From a virus, in IMG/VR virus record IMGVR_UViG_3300050821_001343, positions 35,182 through 99,181 of that record: 64,000 nt of DNA; one strand, given 5' to 3'. The notes below the pieces were generated by a model that was not told where the DNA came from, searched no databases, and saw nothing but the letters and a program-made list of their open reading frames with translations. The translations under genes and the position numbers were made by a program. Every line of letters begins with the position of its first letter. Position 1 is the stretch's first letter. Shown here piece after piece: positions 36,617-59,373 of this stretch.

Positions 36617-37180
36617 CTAGCTAGGTTTTTCTAGTTCCCGAAATCGGCGGGATGGTCGTTCCTCTAATACTCCAGATTCCTCCGGGACTCGATTCTTATC
36701 CATGAAAAGAAGAACTGGGTTCGGAATGTTTGCCAAAAGTCTCATGAAACTAAGGCCCTCACGGATATGATCTGAGCCAAAAAGGGCTTGCCATACGATT
36801 CGTTCTTGGTCTGTAATGTTTTGTGGCAAATGCAATACAACGTGCCAGTGCTTGCCGCTGGTAGAATGAAATTTGTCCCATTGTACTGATCCTTGTTCAA
36901 ATCTTTCACGCAGAATGTCTAGGACTTCTTCAAATCGTTTAGGGATGTCCTCACAGTCGTAGTCTATTTGAATCTCATTAGGCTTGGCCGGAACAATCTC
37001 AAGGTTTGGGTTATGTTTCTTAGCTAGTTGTTCTAACGCGTTGTCCAGTTTATACTTCGGTGTCTTTTCAGGCTCGGGGTCTTTTTCATAAATAGGATCA
37101 CCCCAGTAGCCATAACCAATGATTTTTTTGGTAACAACGTCAGTAGGACTTTTCGTGATAACGAAGTCATCGAAACTCAT
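36617..37180 (-). CDS. Hypothetical protein with C-terminal SRRFR motif
   Basis: DYD...STSG.H.H.V pattern faintly primase/HUH-like; ends EERPSRRFRELEKPS. Confidence 0.5.
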   Translation of the reverse strand: MSFDDFVITKSPTDVVTKKIIGYGYWGDPIYEKDPEPEKTPKYKLDNALEQLAKKHNPNLEIVPAKPNEIQIDYDCEDIPKRFEEVLDILRERFEQGSVQWDKFHSTSGKHWHVVLHLPQNITDQERIVWQALFGSDHIREGLSFMRLLANIPNPVLLFMDKNRVPEESGVLEERPSRRFRELEKPS

Positions 37181-37190
37181 GGAACCCTTT

Positions 37191-37475
37191 CTACTTGGCT
37201 TTTCGTACCCGTGGTTTCTTGAAGTTCTTCTGTCCGTCCACGAATGCTGCTCGGAACTCTTGCAGCATTGAGATGGCTTTGTCGATCTTTACTACTGACT
37301 CAGGCTCGTTTCGGAACCACCAACTGATCTTTCGATTGCAGTCTGATAGGTCCACTTGGCCGGACAGTCTGGTGTGTTTGACTACCTTGTAGGATATGGT
37401 CGAATCACACCCAACCGGGTCTATCCATGCAGACCCGGTTGCGACAACCTTTGGATTTCTGCGAATACGTCTCAT
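37191..37475 (-). CDS. Hypothetical protein (paralog of the adjacent gene)
   Basis: Shares IDP..DS..SYK...SG.V.LSDCNRKISW.F with 37472..37750. Confidence 0.6.
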   Translation of the reverse strand: MRRIRRNPKVVATGSAWIDPVGCDSTISYKVVKHTRLSGQVDLSDCNRKISWWFRNEPESVVKIDKAISMLQEFRAAFVDGQKNFKKPRVRKAK

Positions 37476-37750
37476 GCGGCCTTCTTTTTTGGAAACCGTT
37501 TCCGTGCTTTAATGAATTCTCTGCGAAAGTTGCGCAAGATTTCTATGGCTTTGTCAACCTTGGTAATCGCATCGTCGTTATTACTAAAGTACCACGAGAT
37601 TTTCCGGTTGCAATCTGATAACTCTACGGACCCGCTTATATTTACATAGCTGTCCGTGGTGATCTTGTAAGAAACCATGGAGTCGCTGTCTAGAGGATCA
37701 ATGTAGTGAGCCTCGGTTGCTATCAACTCAGGTTTTTGTTTTTCACTCAT
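37472..37750 (-). CDS. Hypothetical protein (paralog of the adjacent gene)
   Basis: Tandem paralog of 37191..37475. Confidence 0.6.
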   Translation of the reverse strand: MSEKQKPELIATEAHYIDPLDSDSMVSYKITTDSYVNISGSVELSDCNRKISWYFSNNDDAITKVDKAIEILRNFRREFIKARKRFPKKKAA

Positions 37751-38003
37751 GATTTTGTTCCTTTTGCAAACTCCCAGATAAAGAGCGGCCACAAAAGGAT
37801 GCAAACTAATGCGATGGCCTGACTCGGTGAAAGATGCATGTTGTCAGCTTGGCGTATAAAGTATTCGTATGACTTCTTGTACGCCTGTCCATTCTCGGTG
37901 TCCTTTTCGATCTGACTCTCCACGTAGTTAAATAGAACCAAGAGTGCAATGTTGAGGACAATGCCGATTGTCAGATACAAAAGTAATGAGAATGCTAATG
38001 GAC

Positions 38004-38261
38004 TCATGTTGGCTTCCAGCCCTTCCTTCGTGTGAATTTAACTACAATGTTTGTGACCAGTTGAGATTCCACTTCGATCTTCAGATTCCCGTCATGGTGC
38101 GCTTTATGACATTGCGCACATAGTGTGATTAAGTTGTTGAGCGTGTCCGGCCCTCCATGGGAGCGGTACAGCACGTGGTGAGGATGCAAGGCATTGCGAT
38201 CATAGCAGTGTCGGCATTTCCACCCATCCCTAGCGAAACAAGATTGGTAGATAAGGTCCAT
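38004..38261 (-). CDS. HNH endonuclease
   Basis: RDGWKC..C...HH...RS.GG....NL.TLC..CH...H. Confidence 0.88.
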   Translation of the reverse strand: MDLIYQSCFARDGWKCRHCYDRNALHPHHVLYRSHGGPDTLNNLITLCAQCHKAHHDGNLKIEVESQLVTNIVVKFTRRKGWKPT

Positions 38262-38303
38262 AGTTGAGTAAAAACCAGTTCACGTTCAAGATCAGGTAAC
38301 GCA

Positions 38304-39014
38304 TTATTCTGCCTCTTCGTCTTCCAACGGTGTAGTTGCTAATACGCCGTTTGCGGGATCATTGATGAACGCCACGAATACTACCTCGGCTGCGGCTCCA
38401 TCTGATGCGTCTTGACTGATCCCTTCGTCATCCTTCTTAACCGATCCGATCTGCGCCTTTGCTAATTCCAAGGCCGGTCTTACTACTTGGTCAATTGCCA
38501 TTTGCTTCATGTACAGGTGAAGCCAGCCCATGGCGTCTTCTCCTATTAGACCCTTCAAGGTCTTTACATGATTCTTTATTTCATCAAGGGGCATATCTTT
38601 GCCATTATAAATGAAACCTTCAACGAAAGACTTAATCGGTATTTCTTCTTTAGTCTCCGGGTTGACCCATGTATCGTCCAAATTCAAGCTAGTAATTTCT
38701 CTCAGCTTGGCGATGCCCAGTGGTTCATACTTCTCTCGCGGAATCTGCATCACGTCCATAACTTCTGCTATGCGGCGAAGATATTGTGCCTTGCGGGGCT
38801 TGAGTTCCAATGTCTTGACGTACTCTTGGAAGGTTACGAAGCCTTCATAGAATCCGTTCTTCTTGATTGTGTGAAGAAGGTCCGCAATATCGAATGCCGA
38901 ACTGTTTACCTTCTTGATTAGTTGTTCCAGTTGCTTCCGAACCTTGGCCGATTCCCCGGCCACTTTCTGTCCCACGATATTAGGGGGACCGTTTTTATCA
39001 AATACTACTTCCAT
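38304..39014 (-). CDS. Putative DNA-binding protein (DUF3102-like N-terminus)
   Basis: 'TFQEYV..LEL..RKAQYL.RIAE' helical motif. Confidence 0.4.
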   Translation of the reverse strand: MEVVFDKNGPPNIVGQKVAGESAKVRKQLEQLIKKVNSSAFDIADLLHTIKKNGFYEGFVTFQEYVKTLELKPRKAQYLRRIAEVMDVMQIPREKYEPLGIAKLREITSLNLDDTWVNPETKEEIPIKSFVEGFIYNGKDMPLDEIKNHVKTLKGLIGEDAMGWLHLYMKQMAIDQVVRPALELAKAQIGSVKKDDEGISQDASDGAAAEVVFVAFINDPANGVLATTPLEDEEAE

Positions 39015-39421
39015 TCCTCTCCGTATTTCTCAATTGCCTGCACAAACTCTCCAAAGGACTTAAAATGGTAATTGCGTCCAATGTAATGGAACACGTTCTC
39101 CTTCGGCCCGATAATGTAAGCAGGTTTTCCAGTACCGATGGCATACCCGTGCTCAAAGTGCCTGCCGCCTCTCGGTACTCCGATCAGCGGATTCTCAGAG
39201 AAGAATACAATTGCATCAGCCCGATCAATGTCTTCAATGTCAAACGTGGCGAACTCTTTGTACTGCTCCTCTGGGTCATCGCCTAGTTGGGAGTTTAGCG
39301 GTAGCTTTTCTTCTAGCCAACGTGATGTAACTTCTATCCCTTGGTGGCGTAAATATGCCGCGTAGACTTTTAATTCGTCTCGACGCGGATACTGAGCGGC
39401 TAGGTAAAGTTTTAACGACAT
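39005..39421 (-). CDS. Nucleoside 2-deoxyribosyltransferase-like protein
   Basis: LYLA...D.EDI..AD....GGR..E.GYA.G..K. Confidence 0.75.
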   Translation of the reverse strand: MSLKLYLAAQYPRRDELKVYAAYLRHQGIEVTSRWLEEKLPLNSQLGDDPEEQYKEFATFDIEDIDRADAIVFFSENPLIGVPRGGRHFEHGYAIGTGKPAYIIGPKENVFHYIGRNYHFKSFGEFVQAIEKYGEEWK

Positions 39422-39846
39422 TCATCCTCCTGTACTACAACAGGGGCATCATCTATTCCATCTGCCCTCTGGCCGGTGTTCTTTATGATCTGGATTGCCC
39501 GATCATCCCAAACGGCCACACAGCCGTAATCTTTTATACACGTCACAGGCAGCGAAGTACCAAAGACTTTCAACGACCATTTAGCTATTGCGTCCAGTGC
39601 TACGAGTCGCTTCTGAGGATCAGGCTCGGAGGCCCTTGCTGTAAAGATTTTTACAATCTTACCCTCAGCAAGCCACTGAAATACACGATTGACCATAGGA
39701 CCAATCGGTTCTCCGATATGCTCGTGTCCATGGAACGTATCGTATACGGCCAAAGTTCCGTCCAAATCGACTGCAATCCATGGGGCTAGGTAATCCTTAC
39801 CCAACCTTTGTGCTTTCCGTGCTTCCTTCTCGCTGTCCGTTATCAT
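39412..39846 (-). CDS. HAD-family phosphatase (PNKP phosphatase-like)
   Basis: WIAVDLDGTLA, IFTAR, K, WDDRA. Confidence 0.8.
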   Translation of the reverse strand: MITDSEKEARKAQRLGKDYLAPWIAVDLDGTLAVYDTFHGHEHIGEPIGPMVNRVFQWLAEGKIVKIFTARASEPDPQKRLVALDAIAKWSLKVFGTSLPVTCIKDYGCVAVWDDRAIQIIKNTGQRADGIDDAPVVVQEDECR

Positions 39847-40810
39847 GGGTTCCTTTGTCGTAGTCCAGTAATGCAAAACATGTGGCTGTATACGGTTGGT
39901 TCTCTGGTTTCAGGAAGAACGCAGCAAATTCCTTCCGGCTAGTGCATGTTACTAGAGCGTCCTTGACAATCTCGGCGGCTCTGTTTCTGTGCGCCACTTC
40001 AATGCCGGGGTCCGGTAAATCTCGCAGGCGTTTCTGCTCGGCATAGAATTCCTTGCGGTTCTTGAGGAACGTAGGGAACTTTACTTTGAGTTTCAGGGGC
40101 ACAGTGCCGGGAATTCGGTATGAGACAACGTATCCTTCGGACTTGTTACTGTCTGCGTTTAGTGCATCCTTCAAGGAGAGATTGTTTATCTCTGCGGCCA
40201 TATCCAATTTGTTCTTGAAAGCATACTCGCTCACTATCCCCCCGTGAGCCTCTTCCCCTGTTTCAATGTTGATAAGGTCTAATAGGAACAGGCCGTCTTT
40301 AGGATATTTGATAACATGTGGCTGAATCTCTTGACAGATTATTTCGAACACCGGAGTATAACCATAGGGAAAGTCAATAAAGGCAGTCTGATCCAAATGA
40401 TTTTTCAACCATTGAGTAGCAAATTCAGCGTGCGGGGAATGGAATGATCCTTTAGTTGCGATCCCCCAGTGCTCTTTATAGCGCCACAGAATACCAAGAC
40501 ACCCGTTGATCTTCTCTGTGATAACTGGTGGGTTACCATTCGCCTCTTCAATCGCGGCTCTGTTTAACAAGTTTGGATACTGGTCGATGGAAAAGAATTT
40601 CTCATAAGGACGGGCAATGACATTTCCTTCGTCGTCTACAATCAAGCCTCGCGTGCGGCACGTAACGTCATCCCATACCTCATCATAAACTGCCCGTTTG
40701 CCGTAGCAGTAGATGGTTAAAGGTAGGGTGTTGTGTCGGCGTGCTGTGACAAGTCCACTAGTAACATACCAGCGGAGTTTGTCAACGTCAATGTAGTCAG
40801 AGAGTCTCAT
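39797..40810 (-). CDS. RNA ligase, T4 RnlA/Rnl1-like
   Basis: RGLI......ARPYEKFF, EKINGCLG, ATKGSF, FEII, EGYV, KVK. Confidence 0.88.
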   Translation of the reverse strand: MRLSDYIDVDKLRWYVTSGLVTARRHNTLPLTIYCYGKRAVYDEVWDDVTCRTRGLIVDDEGNVIARPYEKFFSIDQYPNLLNRAAIEEANGNPPVITEKINGCLGILWRYKEHWGIATKGSFHSPHAEFATQWLKNHLDQTAFIDFPYGYTPVFEIICQEIQPHVIKYPKDGLFLLDLINIETGEEAHGGIVSEYAFKNKLDMAAEINNLSLKDALNADSNKSEGYVVSYRIPGTVPLKLKVKFPTFLKNRKEFYAEQKRLRDLPDPGIEVAHRNRAAEIVKDALVTCTSRKEFAAFFLKPENQPYTATCFALLDYDKGTHDNGQREGSTESTKVG

Positions 40811-41066
40811 ATGTTCTTACCGTTCTGATTTTGATTCCAAAAGTTGGCCCATTGTTGTTAATTTGAAACCGCTCTCAGGTCCGATGTGAGGCTGACGATA
40901 AAAGCTACCATCATTTTTAATAGTGAATAGAGCCCAATCATCAGCGTCATTACGTGCCACAATGTCAACGCCATTTCCTTTTTTAACGGCAACGATTTCC
41001 CATGTGGGGTCGCTTGTGTGTTCTTTTACTACGAGATTAACTGCCATGATTCTCCTCCACGTGTCC

Positions 41067-41498
41067 CTACTTCTGTGAGTTGTTAGGTACCGGGAACGAA
41101 TTTCCACTTCCCGGCCCGTTCTGTTGGCACTCTGTCTGAGTGTCTACTGTGTCCTGTGCTAGTTGCGTGAGTCCGATGAATGTTTCAATTTCACGGGCTT
41201 GTTCTAGTTCGTTCTGCGCATCAGGGATACTTTTATACATGCCCCGGAGGTACTCGTAGTCAGCTTTAAACGTCTTTTCTGCGGCGGCAAACTCAGGTTC
41301 CGTACAGGGTGTATTCCCATACACTTGCAGGGCTTTATTCGTCTTGTCAACGTTCTCGTAGTACGTATCTGAGAAAGTTTTAATCAGTGCTTTCTCTGAT
41401 TTCACCGGGTCTACGTGAACCACATGAGTGGACGGTAAGGCGTGGGTGCTCGCTACGAACACCCCAATGGACAGTACAAGCGCCGTGATCTTGTTCAT
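41067..41498 (-). CDS. Secreted/periplasmic hypothetical protein
   Basis: Cleavable signal peptide MNKITALVLSIGVFVASTHA. Confidence 0.5.
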   Translation of the reverse strand: MNKITALVLSIGVFVASTHALPSTHVVHVDPVKSEKALIKTFSDTYYENVDKTNKALQVYGNTPCTEPEFAAAEKTFKADYEYLRGMYKSIPDAQNELEQAREIETFIGLTQLAQDTVDTQTECQQNGPGSGNSFPVPNNSQK

Positions 41499-42358
41499 TA
41501 AATCGTTATCTCCTGATCTGGCCCAACGTACTCACCTTCGACTACACCGTTCTCGATGCTCTCTTGAGCGGATTCGACTTCGGCTTCTGCTGCGGCCTGT
41601 GCTCTCTGTTGCTCTTTCTTCTCTTTAGATGCAATGTATTGCAAAAAGATTGCACCAAATTGCTCTCTTTCTTCAGGAGTGACAAAACGAAAGTCACTAA
41701 ACACGGGTACATAAGATACGAACTTTCCCGTGGTGATCAGCTTCGTTGTAAGCTTGAACTTCACATCGAAAATGTTCGGCTTAACACCCTCGGCTTCCTT
41801 CATCCACAGGATGCGCGTTAGATTCTGCATCCCGGCTTCGAAGTTCTGCTTCGCCTTGGACCGAATGAACATCTGCAACGGCATCTTGTACTTCGAATCA
41901 ATCAGAAGTGCCCGGTAGTGAGCATCACATGGAGGGATCAGGGCCTTGTTGGTCTGCCCATTGTTCTTTTCCTTGTACTCCCTCCACTGTGTCCAGTCCT
42001 GTCTTGCGCAGTTTGCACAATTCACGGCCTGCGGAATACGTGCCTTGGGATGTGGCACCTTCATGTCAGTGCTAAAGCACATCAGGTTCTCTGGTGTACG
42101 ATTCAGTTCTCCGGGGTTGCCAATGTGATATTGACGCTGCTCGGTCGGGTCTACTAGGAGTGTACACCACATCTCCTCGAATTGATCCCCTGTTTCAACG
42201 ATTCTCAGGTTTCCTTTAATGGCACCTTCAACTTGACTATTTGGTTGAACAATTGCTAGATTGGCTGGTTTCAGTTCGAACAGCGGATTGTTCCGGTTCA
42301 TTCCCAGACCGCCTGCCTGAATTGACGCATTGTTCAAAACGGTTAGTTCACTCGACAT
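41498..42358 (-). CDS. Putative ssDNA-binding/recombination protein
   Basis: C.S.D...P......P....CANC...W Zn motif and acidic C-tail; next to the exonuclease; AAGGAG RBS. Confidence 0.45.
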   Translation of the reverse strand: MSSELTVLNNASIQAGGLGMNRNNPLFELKPANLAIVQPNSQVEGAIKGNLRIVETGDQFEEMWCTLLVDPTEQRQYHIGNPGELNRTPENLMCFSTDMKVPHPKARIPQAVNCANCARQDWTQWREYKEKNNGQTNKALIPPCDAHYRALLIDSKYKMPLQMFIRSKAKQNFEAGMQNLTRILWMKEAEGVKPNIFDVKFKLTTKLITTGKFVSYVPVFSDFRFVTPEEREQFGAIFLQYIASKEKKEQQRAQAAAEAEVESAQESIENGVVEGEYVGPDQEITI

Positions 42359-44059: not shown

Positions 44060-44296
44060 TCATTCTGCCTCTCGAAACTTCCTGCCTACTGATTCTTGTG
44101 ATAGCACCTTCGGGGTATGTTCTGTATGGTATTCTGCTATAAACTCGGCAACGTGGTTCATGGTGAAATTTATCCTCCCGGAAGGATCACCCCCACATGC
44201 CTTCATTACCGTCATTCTTTCTCCACGAAATCTAATAGTTTGTTTGAGCAGCCAATCGAGAGCCTGTTCTTTTTCTTCATCAGTAATCGGTGACAT
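44060..44296 (-). CDS. Hypothetical protein with C-terminal GRKFR motif
   Basis: ATG 44296 after a GAGGAG RBS; ends QESVGRKFREAE. Confidence 0.55.
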   Translation of the reverse strand: MSPITDEEKEQALDWLLKQTIRFRGERMTVMKACGGDPSGRINFTMNHVAEFIAEYHTEHTPKVLSQESVGRKFREAE

Positions 44297-44536
44297 GTCA
44301 TGACTCCTCGACTTTCTCCGGGGAATGGTGTAATGCTCTGTGTGACAATTCTTCTTCGTCCTTGTGTACACGACATACCGGCCTGCGAGAACTCTTGTCC
44401 GCATAGCCGAAGGTATCTAGTGAAAACCTCCAGAACGACGCATGTGCGTAGCACCCAAGTGAGTCAGTTCCGTTGTACTCGATGTGGCTGCACTGTCTCG
44501 GCGTACTAAACGCTCTGATTGGTTCGAAGATCACAT

Positions 44537-45340: not shown

Positions 45341-45346
45341 AACTCC

Positions 45347-45874
45347 TCATTTCCCGGCAAGTGCTCTCGCCGCTTTCCGACCTACTGCGTCTTCATCCGG
45401 TTTCAAGTATTCTCCGGTAGATGCAAGTGACTTGTGTCCGAGATACTTTTGTACCTCATGAATATCTAATGCTTCTATCAGCCTCATCGCGCATGAGTGT
45501 TTCAACACATGCGGGTGAAGTTTGTGGTGCGGAATACCTGCGAGTTCCCCGGCACGTTGCATCATCTTGTAGACCCCGTTACGGGTCATTGGAAACAACC
45601 GCTCTCCGTTTGACAAAGTACCAGCGAGTATTTTCAAGCCCTCTGCTTCGTCTAAGTCTGGGTCTTCACTCGCAACGTAGGGATGGATAGTCCCACGCGA
45701 TCCCTTCAGGCGATCCGTTCGCACATACCCATCCCTGATATTCTCTTTGGTCAGGCTAGTTAGCTCGGTGACCCTTAGCCCATGGTTGAATCCAACCTTG
45801 AGCATCAGCCTGTGTCTCGGATTAGAGACATTCTGGATCAGAGACTTGAACTCTTCTTGTGCTAGATGTTGCAT
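45347..45874 (-). CDS. Small tyrosine recombinase (FimB/FimE-size, catalytic domain only)
   Basis: GLRVTEL, LKG, HPHVLKHS, LGH......T..Y. Confidence 0.88.
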   Translation of the reverse strand: MQHLAQEEFKSLIQNVSNPRHRLMLKVGFNHGLRVTELTSLTKENIRDGYVRTDRLKGSRGTIHPYVASEDPDLDEAEGLKILAGTLSNGERLFPMTRNGVYKMMQRAGELAGIPHHKLHPHVLKHSCAMRLIEALDIHEVQKYLGHKSLASTGEYLKPDEDAVGRKAARALAGK

Positions 45875-48438: not shown

Positions 48439-48621
48439 GCACTTTCTATTACAAGCACAATTCTTTCTTTCCCGGCACATATGCACTGCTCGGCAAACTC
48501 TTGTGCCGAAACTTTATCAGCATCTTCCACTTGGAAGTGCCAGAGCAGCTTGCGCTGTTGACCAAGCGTTGCGAGCGTCGTTTTCGGCTTTTTGTAACTC
48601 TTCAATGTTCATTCTTCCTCC

Positions 48622-48650
48622 ATACTAACACACTTCCGTGTAATTGTCAA
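48622..48650 (-). promoter_or_regulatory. Sigma70-type promoter
   Basis: TTGACA-17bp-TAGTAT. Confidence 0.7.
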
Positions 48651-48964
48651 GGGGTGATTCGAAACTTTCTTCCCGTCTCTTCAACGGCGACTTGCGACAC
48701 CTGTTGGAACAGAACTTCTTTCACAGTTGCGTGCTCCTTGGGTGTAAACTCCCCCGGCTCGGCTAGCATGAATTCACAGACTTGGCCGTACTGTGTTGTC
48801 CCTTTAGGGTGTTTATACTTCGGACTGCCTATATCGTCGTTGGCATACTCACAGGTACGCATTGGAATACGCAGAGAATCTTTCCCGGAGTGCATATAAC
48901 CGCTTATGGCACGGACATAAGGACTTGCCTTTTCTATAGGCAGTCCACAATTTTTGCAGTTCAC
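48647..48964 (-). CDS. Zn-finger hypothetical protein with C-terminal GRKFR motif
   Basis: GTG start, CKNC...H...C, ends EETGRKFRITP. Confidence 0.55.
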   Translation of the reverse strand: MNCKNCGLPIEKASPYVRAISGYMHSGKDSLRIPMRTCEYANDDIGSPKYKHPKGTTQYGQVCEFMLAEPGEFTPKEHATVKEVLFQQVSQVAVEETGRKFRITP

Positions 48965-49254
48965 TGCGTCACCACCTTCGGAGTACCATATACAGTACCA
49001 ATATAGCATGGCGATACAGTATACACAACTTGCTCCTGATTGCACTTTTCTGCAATCTCCCCGCACACTTCAATTACAGTTGGCAGTGTTGTGTCAAAAA
49101 CTTCTATGATAAGAGAGTCCTCGGGAATGCCTCCGTAACTGCCAGCAGCAGACAAGATGGTGTATCCAGTAAAATGATATGCCAGAATGGAGTCGATCAC
49201 ATCCCGGTTCACATCCTCACAGTAGATTCGGTACAGCTTGTCATTCATTAGCAT
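48961..49254 (-). CDS. Small ferredoxin-fold protein, possibly SAM-lyase-like
   Basis: F.GYT....G.YGG..E.S..IE......IA...NQE.V pattern. Confidence 0.4.
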   Translation of the reverse strand: MLMNDKLYRIYCEDVNRDVIDSILAYHFTGYTILSAAGSYGGIPEDSLIIEVFDTTLPTVIEVCGEIAEKCNQEQVVYTVSPCYIGTVYGTPKVVTQ

Positions 49255-49256
49255 GG

Positions 49257-49814
49257 TTAGCTCCATTCCTGCTGAATTGTTAACCAGCATATTGCCTGCA
49301 AATCTCTTGGTACAAGTCCGACTACACTCGCGGCTCTTTGATACATCTCTTCAATCCTTTTGTACAATGACCCTGCCACAACATCAGGGGCCTTGTCAAT
49401 AGCGACCCTAGCAGCCCATATATCTACCGTAACCAGTTCGGTGTTGCCCAAGATATTAGCATAGAATCTTGGAACTTTCAACCATCGGTTTGGTCTGGTG
49501 GGAGTAAGTACCATAACCGGATCGGCTCCGTTCGCAATGTCCCATGCCTTCTGAATGTTTCGGTAGGTCCCTGCCACGGTCGGCACGATGGTACTGGAAT
49601 GCTGTGCGGCTTTAAGTATCTTTGCGGCTCCTGCTTTGTTTGTTTCCCAGTGTTGCCTTGGTGATAATGCAGCGATCACTCCCACGGCTCTTTCTGTGTT
49701 TCTGTCAAGACCTTTAGCATAAGCCAAGGCATCAGGATACCACTGTGTCCCGGCTGCGACTAATTCCGGGGTAGCCTTTTTGAACGTGTTTAGTATCCTG
49801 TGTAGACTTGACAT
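49257..49814 (-). CDS. Conserved phage protein (DUF7178-like)
   Basis: G..WY..A, AALSP...W..N, K...FY.NI, VTVD.W, QA..W. Confidence 0.6.
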   Translation of the reverse strand: MSSLHRILNTFKKATPELVAAGTQWYPDALAYAKGLDRNTERAVGVIAALSPRQHWETNKAGAAKILKAAQHSSTIVPTVAGTYRNIQKAWDIANGADPVMVLTPTRPNRWLKVPRFYANILGNTELVTVDIWAARVAIDKAPDVVAGSLYKRIEEMYQRAASVVGLVPRDLQAICWLTIQQEWS

Positions 49815-50816
49815 AACGGCTCCTAAAAGAACGGACTCGGTGAAACCTCTTCGTAACGGATTTTTGTGCAGCCCCGGATCAGCAAGTCCGAGAACTCATC
49901 GGTATACTGCTCGTTCAAATCGTCAACCTGCTTCGCTTGGTCGGTGTCGTCACATGTGCGAACGTAGAACTCCGCTCGGCATTCCTCACCCTGCTCATCC
50001 ACATAGAAGAACGTCCCTGCGTGGATTTCACACACTGCTACAGGCTCAGAGTACAGCAAGTGGTCAATGGTTTTCACATTTCCTCCAGTGTTGCTTTGAT
50101 CTGAGCGACGGTCGGGAGAACCTCCCCACTAGTGCGCGAACCTTTGGGATAGTATGCGAACCCATGGGGAGTCCTTTTGATTGTGCCTACATGTGTGTCT
50201 TTAAGGTAGACGTGTATAGGAACGTTGAGTGCCAGTGGTGCCTTGTAATTAACGTCCGCTCTCATGATTCCTCCACAGGCACTTCGAACAACAAGTGCTC
50301 GACTACGGTACCAAAGGCCAGTTCGCCGCCCTTACCGGCAAACCAGATATGCCAGTAGTGCTCCAATGTGTACCCGGCTGCGCCGAATAGGGCCAAGATA
50401 AAAACCTTGCGGGTGAGATACTTCTTCCAGTGAATCCGCCTCAAGTCCGCAAACTTGATCGTGTGAATGTTCTTCTTAATGTGTCCCATGTCCTTTTCTC
50501 CTCCTTTCTTTTAGTATCCCCGGAACGCTCCCTCTTCTTCAATGAAAGGCGCACTAGTGTTGACTAACTCTCTCGGAGCGATTCTGATAATCTCCTCGAT
50601 TGTTAGATAGCCTTCGACCGCCAACAGGTAGTACGATTGATTCTCCCAATAACGTTTGGAATTGGTGTAGGTCAGCCCACGTGCAATCTCGGCTCCGGTG
50701 ATAAGGCTTTCAGGATCATACCAGTTGCCCCGGCTGCGACGGATAGCGAAGTTGTCTTTCTCGAATTTCGATTGAAAATCAATTCCTGCGAACATTTGTC
50801 CCTCACTTTCAAATAC

Positions 50817-50845
50817 AGAGTACCAAACTTATTCCCAAGTGTCAA
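50817..50845 (-). promoter_or_regulatory. Sigma70-type promoter
   Basis: TTGACA-17bp-TACTCT. Confidence 0.7.
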
Positions 50846-51093
50846 GAGTTATTTTCAGTTTCTTTTGACTCGTTTGTGTTAGTACCACTGTTTCCAACTA
50901 TTCTAAAACGCCTGCCTGTAGGTTCCACTGCAACTATATTAGAAGTACGCCTCCATTTTGCTGGCGTTACCTTGCGCGTATGCGTCCAGTGTCCTACAAA
51001 CTCCAACGTGATCGTGTCGAGGCTGTATACGGCTCTATGCACGGGCTGTAGGCAATGACGGCAATGACGAATTAGCGGTTTGTCCTTGGGCAT
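50842..51093 (-). CDS. Zn-finger hypothetical protein with GRRFR motif
   Basis: CRHC...W.H, EPTGRRFR near the C-terminus. Confidence 0.5.
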   Translation of the reverse strand: MPKDKPLIRHCRHCLQPVHRAVYSLDTITLEFVGHWTHTRKVTPAKWRRTSNIVAVEPTGRRFRIVGNSGTNTNESKETENNS

Positions 51094-51478: not shown

Positions 51479-52243
51479 TCATTCGGTCCCCCTAAACCTT
51501 CGTCCTGTAAAGTATTCTGCGGTTGCGGTTTTAGAAGTAGCTTCTTTCTGCCTCTTCCACTCTGCGAACTCTTTGATTTCGTCTAACACTGAGATTGAAT
51601 GCTCGGTGGTTGCTGCGAGTGCTCCGTCCGTTAGACTGCCGGTGTCCGGCCATTCCCCTGTGATTGGGTTGTAGCCGTCCTCGTAGCTCTCACTTAATGA
51701 TCCCGCATTTTCGTACTTGTATTGACCTTCCGGTATCCACGTAGCAGGATGGGGTTTAGGGTATACACCCTCGACTGGTACAAACCATGCAGAAGAAAAT
51801 GTGCTCACATAACCTTTGAGCCTAATCCGTAGTAATTGATCCCCGTAGCTATTCTTCTGATCTTCGATTCCAAGGACTATTAGGTATTCATCTTTCGGAG
51901 AATAAGTCCACTTAGAAAGCGAACCATCCGTTCGTACGAAATCTCTGGGCAGTACAGCTTGTCCAACGGTGAATGTATGTCTAGTCGGTGTGACCTCGAC
52001 TGGCACAAACCATTCCTCAGAAAACTCTGCTAGAGAGCCGTTTATTTTGATTCTCAGTATATCATAACCCCTTGAGTTAGCCTCATTAAGAATTTCAAGT
52101 ACCGTAAAGGTTTCAGTCTTTGGCCCAAACTGCCACTCCATGAATATAGTACCATCCTCATCGAGCACATTAACGGGCCGCACAGTATCACCCACCTTAA
52201 ATCGGTGCTTCTCTGTCTGTCCTTTAATGCTACTATTTGGCAT
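51479..52243 (-). CDS. Hypothetical protein with two repeated small beta domains and C-terminal GRRFR
   Basis: H.F.VG..V.P...DG...W...PK.E...F.S.WFVPVE occurs twice; ends FTGRRFRGTE. Confidence 0.6.
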   Translation of the reverse strand: MPNSSIKGQTEKHRFKVGDTVRPVNVLDEDGTIFMEWQFGPKTETFTVLEILNEANSRGYDILRIKINGSLAEFSEEWFVPVEVTPTRHTFTVGQAVLPRDFVRTDGSLSKWTYSPKDEYLIVLGIEDQKNSYGDQLLRIRLKGYVSTFSSAWFVPVEGVYPKPHPATWIPEGQYKYENAGSLSESYEDGYNPITGEWPDTGSLTDGALAATTEHSISVLDEIKEFAEWKRQKEATSKTATAEYFTGRRFRGTE

Positions 52244-52402
52244 TGTCGAACTCCTTGGCAAGTTTGCGAAGTACCAAAACGATTACTACTGCTAGCAAGC
52301 CTAGCTCAATATGCTGCCATCTGTGCGTCCCAAACAAGGCCAGCACTAGCTGAATACTGGCATACAGTTTGCAGCACGCGATCCCATAGCCGTCAAGCTT
52401 GC

Positions 52403-52558: not shown

Positions 52559-52573
52559 AATTTCTCTTTCTCC

Positions 52574-52699: not shown

Positions 52700-54561
52700 A
52701 GGGCACTCTCGTGCCCCGTTCGTTTACATCATACGCAGATACTTTCGCGTTGCGTGTGTGGCCTGCTCGTGTGGCATGTGCCGATGGAAGACCGCGTGGA
52801 CGTTGTGGAAAACGGCCTGCATACTGTCCATTCCTGCTTTGACGGCCTTGGTCAGTTGGCCTTTGAGTGCGGGAGTCATCTTCACAGGCACAGGCTCCTT
52901 GCGAGGGATGTATCCGCCTCGGGGGTTTCCAGTTGTTTGTGGAAGGTTACAGTCCGAGTGACTTCGACCAGTGTGCGCGTTGTCAGATCGGACCAGTTAA
53001 TGGCCTCTATGAAGCGGAGAGCATTTGCACGCTTCTCTGCGTCCATCTCTTCTTGGGTAAGTTTTGGAGTACCAGTAATACTGTCCATGTGGCTCCTTTC
53101 AAGCCTTCGGGGTTATTGTCCAGATACAAAAATCCAGACTGCAATTGTGACAATGAACAGGAGAATACCGATTAGAGCCCACGGTGTTTGGTAATCCAGT
53201 TCTAAACTTGGCACCTTTTCTCCTCCTGTAAAACGTTTATAAGTTTGGCTTAGGTTGAGGTCTGTGACGGGCCTCCTCAGCCTGCCAGTCTGCAATATGC
53301 TTTTGCTCGTCTGCGGCTTCTTCTGCTTGCCGCTTTACATCGGCCTCACGCTTCGCGTTGAGTGCCACAATCATTTCCAATCCGTGCATGATTAGACTGC
53401 CTCCTGCTTGGCAAGGTGCGCTTTACGCCAAGCTTTGAACGGTGGTTTTCTTGCTGGTGAGAGTTTACGCATACGTGGGGCTTTGTATTGCCGTGTACGC
53501 ATGGTCGGCTCGTTGTCGATACGATCCCACATTCCTGCAAATGTTTCTGCCAGAGTGGAGTCTGTCGGCATTGGCTCGTGATGGTCTGTCATTTGTAACC
53601 TTTCTGTAGCAAGTGCGCTACTGCAAAAGATTGGACTATAGCCCCATCGCTTGCAGTAAGGCACCTAGCCTACTGGGAGAGTCATTAACTCTCCTGTTGC
53701 ATAAGTCCTCCCGCGTATCTGATACGGTTGAACTACCCTGCCCGGTTCCGCCTACCAGTCCCTAGTTAATCAGGGAATCTGGCAATCCTTCAATCGACCC
53801 ACCTTGGCCGATGGTGTCATCGCCATCGGAATAGCCACTTTCGGCTTGAAGCTTCTGCGCCTGTTCGAGCAAACTGCCGTCTGCAATCCCACTGATGATC
53901 CGTGCGGTGATGTACAGGGTAAAAGCTGCCTCGGCAACCACACTCGTACCGATGCCGTTTTCTACAAGCTTGTCATGGAATGCGGCCAGAGTCTTGGAAA
54001 GTTGGACCGCTTCGGCTTCGAGTGCGATCAATTTCTCGGTCACATCTGCGGCGGTTTCCTGCTTCACAGGCTCGTTACTCTCCGGGTTTCCCGGCACTGC
54101 GTTTGGATTGTCCACTTTTCCTCTTTTCTTGGTTTCTTACTGCTGAAATGTTATAGATAGTACACGATTTCTTGGCGTCCTTGCCGCTCTTTCCGTGCAT
54201 TCCATTTGTTAATCAATTGGAATGCCTCTAGTACAGGCATCCCTGCGAGGGATGAAAACGGCACGCCAGCTTCTTTGTAGTGGTCTGCATCAAATGCCAC
54301 AAAGCTTTCAGACTGTACGAACGTTCCTAGAACCCGCTTTGTGAATCCTTTGAATCTCATTGTCCCTCTCTTTCAAACACAGAATAGCAAACAATCAAAA
54401 ACATGTCAAGAACTTTTTTACGGGTCCGGTAAAAAACATGAGTTAGGGGCGTTCGGAGATGCACATTTCAATTCTACTTCTATAGTCTTGTTTAACAAGT
54501 ACCATGCCAGTATTAGGCCAATAATGATTGCCGTTGCTGTTATGATCTTTGTCACAGTTGT

Positions 54562-54590
54562 ACAGTACCAAGTATCAAACCCAATGTCAA
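54562..54590 (-). promoter_or_regulatory. Sigma70-type promoter
   Basis: TTGACA-17bp-TACTGT; a second one with a 16-bp spacer lies at 54381-54408. Confidence 0.6.
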
Positions 54591-55026
54591 TAACTTTCTA
54601 GTACCACTTAGGTGTGAGTACCAAAGTACCAAACTAAAGTACCAAGTACCATAGCCTACACACTTGTAGATATGTGTAAAGGTTTTGTCAGTAAACGCCT
54701 GTGCGTGCTCGCTGGAATACTTTTTGCCGTTTCTTCGCTTTCGCTTTTTATTCCCTTTTGCCTTTTGTTCGCCTATTACTGTAAACGTTTCTCTGATAAT
54801 TCGTGTGCGGCCTGCATCCAAGTCATCCGGGGTAATTTCAGGTGATCCTGCAAACCCCTGTACAGGGAGTCTAAAAACGGCCTATACGTGACTCACATTT
54901 GACATGTAGCGCGTCCCCGTGCATCACTTGGGACCTAGATACCCCGGAATCAACCTACCCCGGAAAGAATGCGGGCGATAGCGTATTTAATACGCACGGG
55001 CTTTTTAGGATCACTAGCAGGCAGGC

Positions 55027-55057
55027 AAAAAAAAAGCCCCCGGACGAATCCGGGGGG
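55027..55057 (-). terminator. Intrinsic terminator
   Basis: CCCCCGGA-TTCG-TCCGGGGG followed by 9 U on the - strand. Confidence 0.9.
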
Positions 55058-55076
55058 TAAGGCCGTACACTTGCGT

Positions 55077-56081
55077 CTAGGAAACTGCCCTAAACTTTCG
55101 ACTAGGCATCTCTTCTACCAGATCGGCCAATTGTGACCCGAGAGATGCCATTGAAGCTTGTACCGATGACTTATAATCGGCATTCTTCTTTAATGCTTGC
55201 ATGTCCATGTCCGGGGTTATCAAGGCTTGCACATCGGCGGCAAGCTTGGCAAGGTCCTTATCCCCGGTAATGTTTCGTGCTTCGAACGTCTTGAGGAAAG
55301 CTTGTATATTCGTTACTGCCGATGTATGTAGCCGTTTGACGTTCCCATCTTCGCTCGGGGCCAATGCGTCTGCTAGATGATTCACCATCTCAGATAGGGT
55401 TTGACGCATGACTGCTGTAATTTCCTCAGTCACCACTGCCATTTTCGCCTGCATCTTCTCTTGCTCAGCTTCATACATGCCCATAGCCTTTAGGCTCTCC
55501 GGGGTTTGAAACGTCAAATACTGCCAGTCAAACCCGAAGCGATTACGGATTACATCAGGCGGAGGAAAGTCATTCGGATCAAGTAGAGTGCCTACTGGAA
55601 CTCCTAAGACTGTGGCAAGTTCGGCTAGGTTTTGCTCCGCCGTTTTCACCCGCTCGGGGTAGGCTATGGCAAACGTTTCTACCAGATCGGCACGAACTTG
55701 AGCATACTCACTCAGCAGGCCATTGACATGCTCTAACAGATCAAGAGGTAAGAGCATAACCCCCATGTCATACGGCAGGCAAAGGTCATACAACCTTGAA
55801 CGCATCTTCCCATCGGCTGATTTGATAGCCTCTAGCTCTGAGGATTCCAAGATGGTCTTTTGAATCTTCAAAAGCTTTTTCAAGCTTGCAGCCTGTGGGG
55901 GGTTCGATACCGGCTCTAGTGACTCAGAACTTTCCGGTACAGGTTCGCTTTTCGGGGTATCGTTCGAACCCCGTAAAACACTATTGGAAACCTTTTTCGA
56001 GTTTCCAAGCACTTTGAAACTCACGCGGAGAAACATACTTTTTTCAAGGATGTTTCCTGCAAGATGTGCTTTAATCGGCAT
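55077..56081 (-). CDS. DUF3150-like protein
   Basis: K.IL....L..I......R..L...LP...G..LLP...F...YP...D.P......RF.F.W helical pattern; ends EEMPSRKFRAVS. Confidence 0.6.
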   Translation of the reverse strand: MPIKAHLAGNILEKSMFLRVSFKVLGNSKKVSNSVLRGSNDTPKSEPVPESSESLEPVSNPPQAASLKKLLKIQKTILESSELEAIKSADGKMRSRLYDLCLPYDMGVMLLPLDLLEHVNGLLSEYAQVRADLVETFAIAYPERVKTAEQNLAELATVLGVPVGTLLDPNDFPPPDVIRNRFGFDWQYLTFQTPESLKAMGMYEAEQEKMQAKMAVVTEEITAVMRQTLSEMVNHLADALAPSEDGNVKRLHTSAVTNIQAFLKTFEARNITGDKDLAKLAADVQALITPDMDMQALKKNADYKSSVQASMASLGSQLADLVEEMPSRKFRAVS

Positions 56082-56161
56082 TTCATCCCCGTTTCTGGAG
56101 GCATAAGTCCCTGTGATGCTACTGCAAAAACATTACCAGATAGACGCGAACCCCGTCAAGT

Positions 56162-56494
56162 TTATAGAAAATATGCCTCAAGATATGCAATCTCCGCGTC
56201 TATGGCCTGTGACCTGTCCTTGTAAACTTCCGGTAAAATTGGCCCGTCAATAGGCGATAGATTCACTCTCCACAGGCAAGACCATGCGCGGGTAGACTCT
56301 GTAACCTTTCCGTACTCCCCAAACACGGCACGGGCCATATAAAAGGCTAGACGGGGCATCAGGCTAACAGGCTCTACATGTGAGGCCCGTTTAATTACGC
56401 TTGTCTCATCCAAGAAACAAGCGGAAAGCCCGTTAACTAAGAAACGGGCTTCGCCTGTGCTGTCATCAATCGAGATTGTTATGCGTTCAGTCAT
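56162..56494 (-). CDS. Conserved hypothetical protein (RASHVEP motif)
   Basis: KRASHVEP...W.V.LSP..GP.L...RS.A..AE..YLE. Confidence 0.6.
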   Translation of the reverse strand: MTERITISIDDSTGEARFLVNGLSACFLDETSVIKRASHVEPVSLMPRLAFYMARAVFGEYGKVTESTRAWSCLWRVNLSPIDGPILPEVYKDRSQAIDAEIAYLEAYFL

Positions 56495-56505
56495 GACTGC
56501 CCTTT

Positions 56506-57078
56506 TTACTTTGCAGATAATTGCTTTGCCATCTCTGTACATACGTCAATATATGCGCGGTATTCGGTGATTTGCTCTTTTGTATAACCGTGATCTTCCC
56601 CGATTGTTTGGTAATACTTGCGCCATTCTTTAATAGTATGCACTTCACAGCCGATAGCAATTTCACTGTGACTGCAAAGTGTTACCGCGTGGCGTGTCCC
56701 TTGAATGTAAAGAGGGGAAAAGGCCCATGCATCGCCACGAACCCGCGCATTACCGTAAACCCGCGCATTACCGTAAACCCGCGCATTGCCCCCAATTCGC
56801 GCATCGCCATAGACTTGAGCATCGCCATAGACTTGAGCATCGCCCGCTACCCACGCATTACCATAGACTCGGGCATTGGCATAGACTCGGGCATCACCAT
56901 AGACTCGGGCATCACCATAGACTCGGGCATTGTCATAGACAATGCTAGTTGCGGCCAGATAAGCCGATGGAGCAACGTGGGCAGTTTTATAAATCCAACC
57001 TTGCCCGTTTTCGTGTGCGTGCCAATCACTGTCAACTGACTGCCATACTCTGTCTAATACGTTTTGTGGCACTCTCAT
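56506..57078 (-). CDS. Hexapeptide-repeat (left-handed beta-helix) protein
   Basis: About 11 [AR]-V-Y-G-[DN] repeats (18-bp DNA units) plus an IGC..H....W C-terminal domain. Confidence 0.85.
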   Translation of the reverse strand: MRVPQNVLDRVWQSVDSDWHAHENGQGWIYKTAHVAPSAYLAATSIVYDNARVYGDARVYGDARVYANARVYGNAWVAGDAQVYGDAQVYGDARIGGNARVYGNARVYGNARVRGDAWAFSPLYIQGTRHAVTLCSHSEIAIGCEVHTIKEWRKYYQTIGEDHGYTKEQITEYRAYIDVCTEMAKQLSAK

Positions 57079-57085
57079 AAAAGCC

Positions 57086-57277
57086 TCATTGACCTTGTTT
57101 GACGTATTGGGTTTGAGTTTGATTGAACTCGGGTTTGTGAACTTCGCTTGTCACTTCGCCGATTTCGCCAAAAGCTTTGATGACTGCCGCACAGCCTTTG
57201 CCGTGAAATCCTTGCAAATCTACCGACGATTCGCCTGTGCTGTCATCAACCGTGATTCGTATCAATTCTCCGGCCAT
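57086..57277 (-). CDS. DUF2997-like protein
   Basis: I.ITV...GE..V...GF.G..C.........G.......KPEF. Confidence 0.75.
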   Translation of the reverse strand: MAGELIRITVDDSTGESSVDLQGFHGKGCAAVIKAFGEIGEVTSEVHKPEFNQTQTQYVKQGQ

Positions 57278-57319
57278 GTCTATCCATCCTTTCCGGGCAC
57301 ATAGCCCTATGACGGTGCA

Positions 57320-57763
57320 TTACGCTTTTACAAAAAGCATGTCAGTCTTGCCGTTCTTTTTAGGGCCATATCCGGCAAAGCGCAAACCTTGCTTTGCTGC
57401 TAGTTTCTGGTACTGGGTTCGCGTATATGCTGCCGTGAGTTTGCCCATGTACGCGGGGGTTAAGAAGTGAGAGTCATACTGCGAGATGAAAGCACTATAT
57501 GTGCCATCGGCCTGCAAACGAAAACCAAAGTCATTCGAGGCCCCCGAACCCATCACGCGATTAAATGGGCCTTTGCGAATCACGATATTCGCCTTATCCC
57601 CTGCCGCATCGGTGTAATGCGTGGCTTTGCCCGTGTAATCGTACAATTGAGCGGGGGATTCATGAAATTCAATGTCCTCACGGTTGAATCCCATTTCGAC
57701 TAGTGCTGAAATGAGGGTTTCCGGGTCTTTGAATTTCGTTTGGTTAGTCGAGTATTTAGACAC
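57320..57763 (-). CDS. DUF1257 (Ycf35)-like protein
   Basis: S.Y....T...D...L..AL..MG...DFGF....DGTY.....D......L...Y......A...G. Confidence 0.75.
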   Translation of the reverse strand: MSKYSTNQTKFKDPETLISALVEMGFNREDIEFHESPAQLYDYTGKATHYTDAAGDKANIVIRKGPFNRVMGSGASNDFGFRLQADGTYSAFISQYDSHFLTPAYMGKLTAAYTRTQYQKLAAKQGLRFAGYGPKKNGKTDMLFVKA

Positions 57764-57812
57764 CTGATTTGATCCTTTCCGGGGTATAAACCCCTGTTAG
57801 CTTGCACTTGAA

Positions 57813-57842
57813 AGCCTATCAGAAACGGGGCAAACTTGTCAA
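57813..57842 (-). promoter_or_regulatory. Sigma70-type promoter overlapping a hairpin
   Basis: TTGACA-18bp-TAGGCT, with the -35 box in the loop of AACGGGGCA/TGCCCCGTT. Confidence 0.5.
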
Positions 57843-57858
57843 GCCTGCCCCGTTCGGC

Positions 57859-59373
57859 CTAACGCATCATACGGCCTGTGCTTTCCTCTTCCACGTTCGA
57901 AGCTTGTGACACTCCGCCTGCGAACTGGTAGGCCCCCGGATAGGACGCTGATAGATACTTGCCGGAACTGCTACGCCGTAGGTTATCAATCCGCTCTGAT
58001 GCCGATACAGTCACAGGAATGATGTACTGTGCGGCCTGTGCCAGAGTCAAACCCAAACGATAGGCAGTGACGGCACAAGTCTTAATTTCGGCACCAGTCC
58101 ATCCCGTGTCATTCGGGGTAGACTCAATATCGGGAATCTGGTATTTCTCCCGGTAGATTTTCCAGATTGAGGCACGTTCGATTTGATCCGGTGCATCGAA
58201 AAAGAATATTGCATCCGCGAACCTACGCCGTAATTCCGGTGAAAGAGAATCGATGCTATTGCACGTTGCCAATGCAAAGATTTTACGATCTGAGATGGCA
58301 TCTAGCACGGCCTGTGCTTTACGCCAGTTTTCGTTCGAACTGCCGACAATCCCGGATTCCAGATCGGGGATTGAAAGAGAGATTACGGGCTTTTTATACT
58401 TGTTGCCAATGCCCTTGATAATCTCCGACTTACCTACTCCCGGCAAGCCTACCCCGATAGTTCCCCGCATCCCAATGTCTTGTGACCATGTGAGGAATCC
58501 ACCTATCAAGCCCGTTTTTACCCCGGACAATTCTGTGCCTGCCCCCGCCGCACCCTTTTCGATTTCATCCAAGAATAAAAGCACGTTTGGCGAGTCCTTG
58601 CCATTCATGACTCTATCAAGAAAAAGCTTGATTTCGCCAAGCCCCCCGATAGCGTCAAGGCTTGCCGTCGTCTTCAAAACCGATAGGCCGCGAGTCTGAT
58701 TGATAGCTTGCTCTTTCCGTTCCCAAAGTCCTTGAATGTCCATCTTCCCATTGGGAATGTCTAAGCACATAGCCGCACTTTGATCGGCGGGAAAGGCAGG
58801 CAGGCCGATTAGTGCGCGTGTGGCGTCTGCTAGCACTTCGCTTGATGGTTCGGGGAGTTTAGCGTCTTTAAAAGACGTTTTCACAATGGCCGTAATTTCC
58901 TCACTTGTGGGCAGGGGTTCGTCCAACACAAGGAAATCGTTAGCTAGTTCGTTCGGCAGGATGGCCCCGGAACTAGTCAAAAGGACTAGCATATTCCCCT
59001 TTGCCTTGTAGGGTTCGCGCAAGTTCCAAATCCCTTGGATAATAGGCGCATCAGTCCAAAACATGTGGGCATTGGCAAGAAACGTAATGCAATCGCCTTT
59101 GAGGAATGAGGCAACGCGCAAAGCTTCGCCAAGGTTCATTGTAGCCTCAATTGCCGTACCTGCCTTGCCCACTGCCGCGTTTAGCTCTGCTAGTGTGGGC
59201 TCGTGATACGTGTGCAAGCCTTTGACACAATCCCAGATAATGAAATGGGGCATTTTATCCTTTGCCCAAAGGGTTTTTACACGTTTGATTGTCGAATTGT
59301 TATCGAACGTGCGAACGGCTACCAGTGGAGTAGATACAGCGTGTGCAGCCTTAAAACTGTCCAAGAATTTCAT
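57859..59373 (-). CDS. Ycf46-like AAA+ ATPase with permuted motif order
   Basis: N-terminal degenerate AAA domain (WDC..GL, LP.EL, PLP...EI), IGGL..IK, LDEIEK, FLTW.Q, GLPGVGKS, ATCN, PEL..RF..IFFFD.P, GWTGAEI. Confidence 0.85.
   Translation of the reverse strand: MKFLDSFKAAHAVSTPLVAVRTFDNNSTIKRVKTLWAKDKMPHFIIWDCVKGLHTYHEPTLAELNAAVGKAGTAIEATMNLGEALRVASFLKGDCITFLANAHMFWTDAPIIQGIWNLREPYKAKGNMLVLLTSSGAILPNELANDFLVLDEPLPTSEEITAIVKTSFKDAKLPEPSSEVLADATRALIGLPAFPADQSAAMCLDIPNGKMDIQGLWERKEQAINQTRGLSVLKTTASLDAIGGLGEIKLFLDRVMNGKDSPNVLLFLDEIEKGAAGAGTELSGVKTGLIGGFLTWSQDIGMRGTIGVGLPGVGKSEIIKGIGNKYKKPVISLSIPDLESGIVGSSNENWRKAQAVLDAISDRKIFALATCNSIDSLSPELRRRFADAIFFFDAPDQIERASIWKIYREKYQIPDIESTPNDTGWTGAEIKTCAVTAYRLGLTLAQAAQYIIPVTVSASERIDNLRRSSSGKYLSASYPGAYQFAGGVSQASNVEEESTGRMMR

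Follow-up and report, generated by a model that had tools for sequence, protein, structure and literature searches.

Cells wire AAA+ machines to their clients by shared docking tails, as in the proteasome, p97, ClpX and Vps4. Here we analyse a window of 64,000 nucleotides (bases 35182-99181) of IMG/VR record IMGVR_UViG_3300050821_001343, a complete virus genome of 99,181 bp with direct terminal repeats. In this window a short peptide, E-x(2-3)-[GS]-R-[KR]-F-[RK], stands near the C-terminus of several unrelated proteins, some of which belong to a module made of an AAA ATPase and of DUF1257-, DUF2997- and DUF3150-like proteins. Our results suggest that this tail is probably a docking tag, read by one phage-encoded site of the module. 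We found no description of such a docking code for a phage-encoded AAA+ machine. The literature on DUF3150, on DUF1257/DUF2997, on Ycf46 in phages and on C-terminal motifs of phage AAA+ proteins gave no account of the function of the module or of the tail; the DUF families of the module appear there only as incidental mentions, and no functional study of them was found.

Several described systems resemble the phage tails in part. The HbYX tails of PAN, the Rpt subunits, archaeal Cdc48 and Blm10 also form one C-terminal address that brings unrelated proteins, a Cdc48-type ATPase among them, to one site. However, HbYX is a hydrophobic-Tyr-X sequence at the extreme C-terminus that plugs the pockets of the 20S alpha ring, whereas the phage tails read R-x-hydrophobic-x, have no penultimate Tyr and place the motif 0 to 39 residues from the end. 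No 20S proteasome-like gene turned up among the annotated proteins, no systematic search of the genome having been made for one. The cofactor motifs of p97/Cdc48 (VIM, VBM and SHP) and the XB motif of SspB are short, often Arg-rich peptides that tether unrelated partners to the N-domain of an AAA+ unfoldase. The phage ATPase is modelled with the D1-D2 fold of p97, and our lead for a receptor falls in its N-terminal half, but these motifs have no sequence relationship to the phage tail, and the phage ATPase lacks a p97-type N domain and itself carries the motif. In the MIT-MIM system of Vps4, an AAA ATPase of the classical clade is brought to its partners or substrates by a family of C-terminal motifs. 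Yet MIMs are helical or proline-rich and stand on homologous ESCRT-III proteins, whereas the carriers of the phage tail have no relation to one another, and we detected no MIT-like domain.

The gene families themselves have a cellular parallel. Ycf46 (AAA), Ycf35 (DUF1257) and DUF2997 of cyanobacteria and plastids belong to the same three families as the core of the phage module, and DUF1257 and DUF2997 are neighbours in cyanobacteria (PMC4284462), but neither DUF3150 nor a shared tail has been reported for that set. Finally, encapsulins recognise a short C-terminal peptide on unrelated cargo, which thereby shares one phage-related partner. That peptide binds an HK97-fold shell encoded beside the cargo, whereas the tagged genes described here cluster with the ATPase module and not with capsid genes, the tag being tied to an ATPase operon of the non-structural arm.

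The shared tail and the AAA module

A search of all open reading frames (ORFs) of at least 40 amino acids in the genome for [GS]R[KR]FR gave eight matches, six inside the window and two outside it. All eight are in minus-strand ORFs, 3-19 residues before the stop, and none is internal. A preliminary description of this DNA, made from its letters alone, had listed six C-termini sharing the motif in the window, and all of them are present as it described. A motif no more frequent at C-termini than in internal or shuffled sequence would by its own account have refuted it, and our counts show the contrary. A background set of 180 ORFs, obtained by greedy selection and recovering seven of the eight tagged ORFs, has these seven matches in the last 30 residues and none in 26,359 internal residues. 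Shuffling the residues of each protein gave an expectation of 0.12 matches anywhere and of 0.02 at C-termini, with a maximum of two in 2000 shuffles. The tagged genes are located in the minus-strand, non-structural arm of the genome, and the capsid genes are on the other strand. The two tagged ORFs outside the window (genome positions 393-1433 and 1408-1887, both on the minus strand and both with the match near the stop) extend the same arm across the ends of the record.

The codons vary at every position of the motif. Gly is encoded by GGA, GGG or GGC, Ser by TCC and by AGT, which represent both codon families, Arg by four codons and Phe by both of its codons, while the DNA flanking and downstream of the copies is unrelated from one copy to the next. 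This codon variety and the unrelated flanks argue for selection on the peptide, as had been proposed, and rule out a DNA repeat or a regulatory element. A tag added by transfer-messenger RNA (tmRNA) is ruled out as well, since the tags are encoded in frame and ARAGORN finds no tmRNA in the genome.

Two of the carriers belong to the module itself. The first is a DUF3150-like core protein of 334 amino acids (55077-56081, minus strand), which ends in LVEEMP-SRKFR-AVS before the stop (tag at 55089-55103). Its score against Pfam DUF3150 (PF11348) is 17.7 bits, for a gathering cut-off of 24.9, and several of its homologues at 38-45% identity carry PF11348. The tail LV-x3-P-[GS]-R-K-F-[RK] is kept in 20 of 20 homologues (34-82% identity), where P326, R328 and F330 never vary and K329 and R331 hardly do. 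The second is a Cdc48/p97-like double AAA ATPase of 506 amino acids (57859-59379, minus strand) with the tail EEEST-GRMMR immediately before the stop (motif at 57862-57876). It matches Pfam AAA (PF00004) with 40.2 bits, for a cut-off of 21.2, and its closest sequence matches in the PDB are p97/Cdc48. In a search of the full library, 1,043 relatives had E below 1e-30. Most of the 150 representatives listed (36-55% identity) end in a short tail with [GSA]-R-[KR]-hydrophobic. The Arg of this tail (R503) is invariant in a 50-sequence alignment of the family, so the earlier suggestion that GRMMR is a variant of the tag holds. Overall, five tagged families keep the tag in their orthologues, at 34-82% identity. 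A further variant suggested in the preliminary description, EEEGAFRGY (50511-50795), was dropped, because this ending is absent from orthologues at 55-56% identity.

When the neighbours of 19 DUF3150 loci were clustered, the AAA ATPase was the one near-universal neighbour (18/19), and the ATPases found near DUF3150 end in related tails, such as GRKMR, GRKIR and GRRMK, as does the ATPase of the window with GRMMR. The DUF1257-like and DUF2997-like genes sit between the ATPase and DUF3150 genes. In a survey of 80 ATPase-centred IMG/VR loci, DUF3150 is at most 7 kb away from the ATPase in 73, DUF1257 is found in 71, DUF2997 in at least 51, and an accessory family of 108 amino acids in 40. In this widespread phage module the ATPase and DUF3150 are the largest two members. 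The association between the tag and this module, suspected from the window, takes the form of a family-wide tail of both the ATPase and DUF3150.

Both of these tails are disordered in structure models. The AlphaFold2 (AF2) model of the ATPase has a predicted local distance difference test (pLDDT) score of 92.7 overall, and its residues 489-506 are disordered (pLDDT 40-44). Foldseek matched it to the D1-D2 domains of Cdc48, p97 and Rix7 (E = 6e-14, about 570 columns, template-modelling (TM) score up to 0.52), which identifies the modelled protein as two tandem AAA domains of unfoldase type, classical clade and Cdc48/p97-like type II. The model of DUF3150 (pLDDT 71) has a helical body, which includes a small sheet, and ends in a tail that is disordered (pLDDT 36); its fold searches gave generic helical-bundle matches only (best Foldseek E 0.37, VIA Z at most 8.6). 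As they are disordered in confident models, both tails are predicted to be free linear peptides.

The spellings of the ATPase and DUF3150 tails differ widely among loci and agree within a locus, as shown by the pairs RAISL/RAISF, RQITMED/RAITFDD, RLYGDS/RAYGLE, RTIE/RVIEFE and RKFE/RKFDLE (ATPase first). We placed the two tails independently, by hidden Markov model alignment of the invariant Arg, in 47 distinct ATPase/DUF3150 pairs. The mean BLOSUM score over tail positions +1 to +5 was 7.6 in the real pairs versus 3.3 ± 0.64 in permuted ones (z = 6.7, 0 of 10,000 permutations), and the co-variation was still seen without the RKF[RK] clade to which the window belongs (z = 3.9, 1 of 10,000 permutations). 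Because the ATPase and DUF3150 are not homologous, their lineage-by-lineage resemblance cannot be explained by shared descent alone. Past the Arg, most lineages have a tail of acidic or hydrophobic and not of basic character (e.g., R-A-I-S-F-E-E), with an alternation of the type R-x-hydrophobic-x-hydrophobic. The peptide of the window is best read as the spelling, in one lineage, of a conserved tail R-x-hydrophobic-x-(hydrophobic/acidic).

The tail is also copied onto other proteins. We counted 20 extra ORFs with the four-residue core of their own locus at most 25 residues from the end, whereas the cores of other loci lead one to expect 2.6. One locus, for instance, has two copies of PARLISLE, and another, in which the ATPase ends in HRKIDLN, has PIRKFDL on three of its proteins. 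The window shows the same organisation, with GRMMR on the ATPase, SRKFR on DUF3150 and further tagged proteins, and the excess of extra carriers suggests that its tag expansion is one instance of a general habit of the module.

Comparison with closer relatives gives the same picture within genomes. GenBank phages include no close DNA relative, and at the protein level they gave a single relative, the syntenic Tunturiibacter phage Tunturi_3. In this phage the DUF3150-like protein gp96 ends in DAPDRKFH.. and the ATPase gp103 in GRIIR, and the motif is on no further protein within the 41 kb examined. Queries of IMG/VR with a single protein gave nothing, but alignment-based queries succeeded, and the resulting scan covers 21 loci. 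The closer of these loci and the related complete genomes have 2-7 proteins with GRKF[RK], 0-6 residues from the end and on the gene strand only. A degenerate DNA pattern applied to five related loci gave forward/reverse counts of 5/0, 6/0, 5/0, 0/2 and 2/0, with zero control matches. Residues past the core are also common within one genome (GRKFR[DN]E, GRKFK[EK]xL and GRKFKE[AV], each followed by the stop), and there too the codons differ and the downstream DNA is unrelated. These trailing residues point to the concerted evolution of a peptide within each genome, which would imply one common reader.

Candidate readers of the tail

The number of tags, their strand and conservation, the co-variation of the tails and their locus-specific copying are all in agreement with a docking tag for a co-evolving phage-encoded site. 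Placed in a C-terminal tail that is disordered, the motif would serve as a short linear tag that tethers the ATPase, DUF3150 and other, lineage-specific phage proteins to this one site. The docking signal imagined in the preliminary description survives as a peptide-level C-terminal signal on unrelated proteins, tied to the AAA module, but loses EEEGAFRGY as one of its forms. Our preference for the site, which we express with low confidence, goes to the D1-like domain at the N-terminus of the ATPase, in the vicinity of residue 96. Docking at this domain would let the ATPase act on the tagged proteins, or assemble with them. Binding, the protein that reads the tail and what becomes of the tagged proteins are all inferred; these proteins might be remodelled, unfolded, assembled or turned over.

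Which genes of the module a locus has is uninformative for the choice of receptor, all core genes being near-universal. We scanned all columns of five module families for coupling with positions +1 to +4 of the DUF3150 tail in 61 non-redundant loci, which amounts to about 2,500 column-by-position tests. The ATPase provides 62 of the top 100 tail-coupled columns versus 45 expected. DUF1257 (8 versus 11 expected), DUF2997 (2 versus 6) and also DUF3150 are under-represented, in a scan that is weak. The column most strongly coupled with position +3 is D96 of the ATPase (window numbering), in the N-terminal domain: an Arg or Lys at +3 goes with an acidic residue 96, and an acidic or polar +3 with a Lys or Arg at residue 96. 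A follow-up set was made of 30 further loci with a readable DUF3150 tail and an ATPase less than 90% identical to any used before. The three loci of this set with a basic +3 all have an acidic residue 96, and a basic +3 was found in none with a non-acidic residue 96. Among the 91 non-redundant loci, a basic +3 is paired with an acidic residue 96 in 24 cases, with a basic one in none and with neither kind in one. We regard D96 as a lead, the candidate contact of tail position +3, and a site near it in the N-terminal domain of the ATPase as a tentative proposal for the receptor.

A number of observations count against a docking tag or against the ATPase as its reader. The residue-96 pattern was chosen post hoc, and an acidic residue 96 is also paired with non-basic tails in 10 loci. 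The tree of the ATPase has only about nine changes, or independent origins, of tail character, and a test of residue 96 with phylogenetically independent pairs was not significant (median p = 0.5), although its direction was consistent. The permutation tests of tail co-variation ignore the kinship among loci. Neither the ATPase tail nor the DUF3150 tail docks in cis in the AF2 monomers, the result for the ATPase being the adverse one. Three of the tagged proteins of the window (c4, c5 and c6, described below) have no orthologues in the genomes compared, and their tags are unconfirmed in this way. Finally, an ATPase bearing the same tail as its presumed clients is awkward for a simple substrate-tag model, and a third-party platform made of DUF1257/DUF2997 fits this tail of the ATPase equally well.

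Such a platform is the alternative that survives best, even if we think it unlikely. The tail would dock on DUF1257, on DUF2997 or on both, where the ATPase hexamer and the tagged proteins would meet or compete, by analogy with proteasome activators on the 20S alpha ring. This differs from docking on the ATPase in the receptor protein only. It would give a more natural account of the tail on the ATPase, and the alternation R-x-hydrophobic-x-hydrophobic would suit a peptide that extends the beta-sheet of a small protein as an extra edge strand. Both families are also frequent in the 80 surveyed loci, where DUF2997 is probably under-detected. Against this stand their under-representation among the top tail-coupled columns of the weak scan, and the fact that we found no solved or annotated peptide-binding fold for DUF1257.

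If the tail were instead a degron or engagement tag, threaded into the pore of the ATPase or read by the host ClpXP, Lon or FtsH, it would time the removal of its carriers. The unfoldase clade of the ATPase fits this idea, as does a tail that is C-terminal, disordered and basic. The C-motif-2 degrons of ClpX are C-terminal, disordered and basic, and the tail of the window is similar to them in these respects. However, ssrA- and MuA-like ClpX degrons lie at the extreme C-terminus (LAA or RRKKAI), whereas the phage tail has a variable position, up to 39 residues from the end, and a differing, lineage-dependent sequence. The strict linkage to the module and the concerted respelling from phage to phage are features that a conserved host protease does not need, and the ATPase and its constant partner DUF3150 would be self-degrading. 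The readings by a host protease or a host complex, both raised in the preliminary description, are weakened: the tail follows the module, is respelled in step with it and lacks a basic character in most lineages. We consider a degron improbable compared with docking on a phage-encoded site. Least credible of all is a capsid-loading or other sorting signal, in the style of encapsulin cargo or T4 capsid targeting, or a basic patch binding nucleic acids: the short terminal peptide is indeed common to unrelated small proteins, several of which have Cys-rich zinc-ribbon-like motifs, and is rich in Arg and Lys in the lineage of the window, but it tracks the ATPase module and not the capsid genes of the other strand, its carriers include an ATPase of 506 amino acids, and it is acidic or hydrophobic after the Arg in most lineages, which means that charge is not the conserved property.

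Tagged proteins of the window and neighbouring genes

Apart from DUF3150, the regular expression identified five tagged proteins in the window, here called c3 to c7, all on the minus strand. The tagged proteins of no recognised function have no Pfam or PHROG matches. The first, c3, has 187 amino acids (36617-37180) and the tail EERP-SRRFR-ELEKPS (tag at 36638-36652), and its gene is directly upstream of a gene for a 562-residue helicase (34922-36610). Its three orthologues, at 50-56% identity, keep an R-x-F tail (GRKFK, ARKFR and IRKFK), with R178 and F180 invariant. They also share with c3 the invariant motifs D-Y-D and S-x-K-H-W-H-V. We take these to resemble motifs I and II of archaeo-eukaryotic primase-polymerases, a likeness that has no support from Pfam, PHROG or PDB profiles; the profile of c3 gave no match when searched against the PDB.

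The tag is also conserved in c7, a protein of 260 amino acids (51479-52261) with the tail EYFT-GRRFR-GTE (tag at 51491-51505). Three orthologues at 48-51% identity end in FTGRLFRGR[ED], and F251, T252, G253, R254, F256, R257 and G258 are invariant. For the pair of tagged genes that lie outside the window, two related complete genomes contain orthologues that are tagged too, at the same place after a metallophosphoesterase gene.

The other three proteins are smaller. The protein c4 has 114 amino acids (44060-44404), the tail QESV-GRKFR-EAE (tag at 44072-44086) and no Pfam or PHROG match. The protein c5 has at most 139 amino acids (48647-49066) and the tail VEET-GRKFR-ITP (tag at 48659-48673). 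The 5' part of its ORF overlaps a conserved gene for 109 amino acids at 48961-49290, which makes the start codon uncertain, and the true start is probably internal to the ORF. The protein c6 has 83 amino acids (50842-51093), with VEPT-GRRFR-IVG followed by 19 further residues (tag at 50902-50916). It carries the least secure of the tags, because it has no orthologue for comparison. Near-consensus sigma-70-like promoters were read by eye on the minus strand directly past the stops of two tagged genes, TTGACA-17 nt-TAGTAT at about 48610-48646 and TTGACA-17 nt-TACTCT at about 50790-50841.

The ending GRKAARALAGK of an integrase-family protein (45347-45874, minus strand) was considered as a tag and dropped, because the relatives of this protein have different ends. 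The protein, of 175 amino acids, matches only the catalytic domain of tyrosine recombinases ('Phage integrase', E = 1e-23). Several related phages, whose genomes have an otherwise lytic appearance, encode relatives of it at the same site.

The small proteins of the module are also encoded on the minus strand. The DUF2997-like protein has 63 amino acids (57086-57277) and scores 21.8 bits against Pfam PF11211, for a cut-off of 24.1. The DUF1257-like protein, of 147 amino acids (57320-57763), was recognised from the ESM Atlas and from its aligned relatives. It has no Pfam match, and PF06868 (DUF1257, Ycf35) finds nothing in a six-frame search of the genome, for which Synechococcus elongatus served as the control genome holding DUF1257. 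Twelve of its 30 aligned relatives match PF06868, and in the ESM Atlas it falls in DUF1257 clusters (feature score 0.94, TM score 0.83). The accessory protein has 126 amino acids (56162-56542) and lacks the tail motif; it belongs to the accessory family counted above. Between its gene and that of DUF2997 is inserted a gene for a protein of 190 amino acids with YdcK-type beta-solenoid/hexapeptide repeats (56506-57078, minus strand, E = 3.6e-17), which belongs to no family common to at least four of the 19 DUF3150 loci. In the family consensus of the ATPase, a Walker-B-like strand, DEIEK, precedes the GxPGxGKS P-loop by about 35 residues, and a clear Walker B is missing between this P-loop and the ATCN sensor-1 strand, which bears on the idea, raised separately for this DNA, of a permuted AAA core.

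Outside phages, a search of 185,579 species genomes gave distant copies of DUF3150 (25-27% identity) in two Planctomycetes, Rhodopirellula europaea 6C (L045) and a Pirellula metagenome-assembled genome (L046), as well as one relative at 42% identity on a contig of a single-cell assembly of an uncultured bacterium (L044), and no others. Given so few relatives, the family is overwhelmingly viral. In GenBank, gp96 of Tunturi_3 (PP885686; L001 19950-20909) is named 'HNH endonuclease'. This protein aligns over 99% of the DUF3150-like protein of the window (E = 1e-36) and is part of the same module, so the name looks wrong. ARAGORN, run on the whole genome with circular topology included, found 15 tRNA genes and no tmRNA, and the site proposed for a two-piece tmRNA, at about 7.6 kb, holds a minus-strand ORF of 61 amino acids (genome 7640-7825).

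Meaning for the phage module

A wider reading, speculative at this stage, is that phages of many lineages encode a self-contained, re-addressable system for protein remodelling, in which the N-domain of a Cdc48-like unfoldase reads a short C-terminal address that has its own spelling in each lineage. Each lineage would write this address on a changing set of proteins, here mostly small zinc-ribbon and DNA-metabolism-like proteins, and the tail of the ATPase itself would be a built-in competitor. If this is true, viruses would have their own equivalent of the codes of p97 cofactors or ClpX adaptors. The system is also experimentally reachable, because Tunturi_3, a relative that is in culture with its host, has the module, and both its ATPase and its DUF3150 bear tails. 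As a docking tag, the tail would list the clients of the module in each genome, predict a receptor that co-evolves with it and give a handle on the function of the module.

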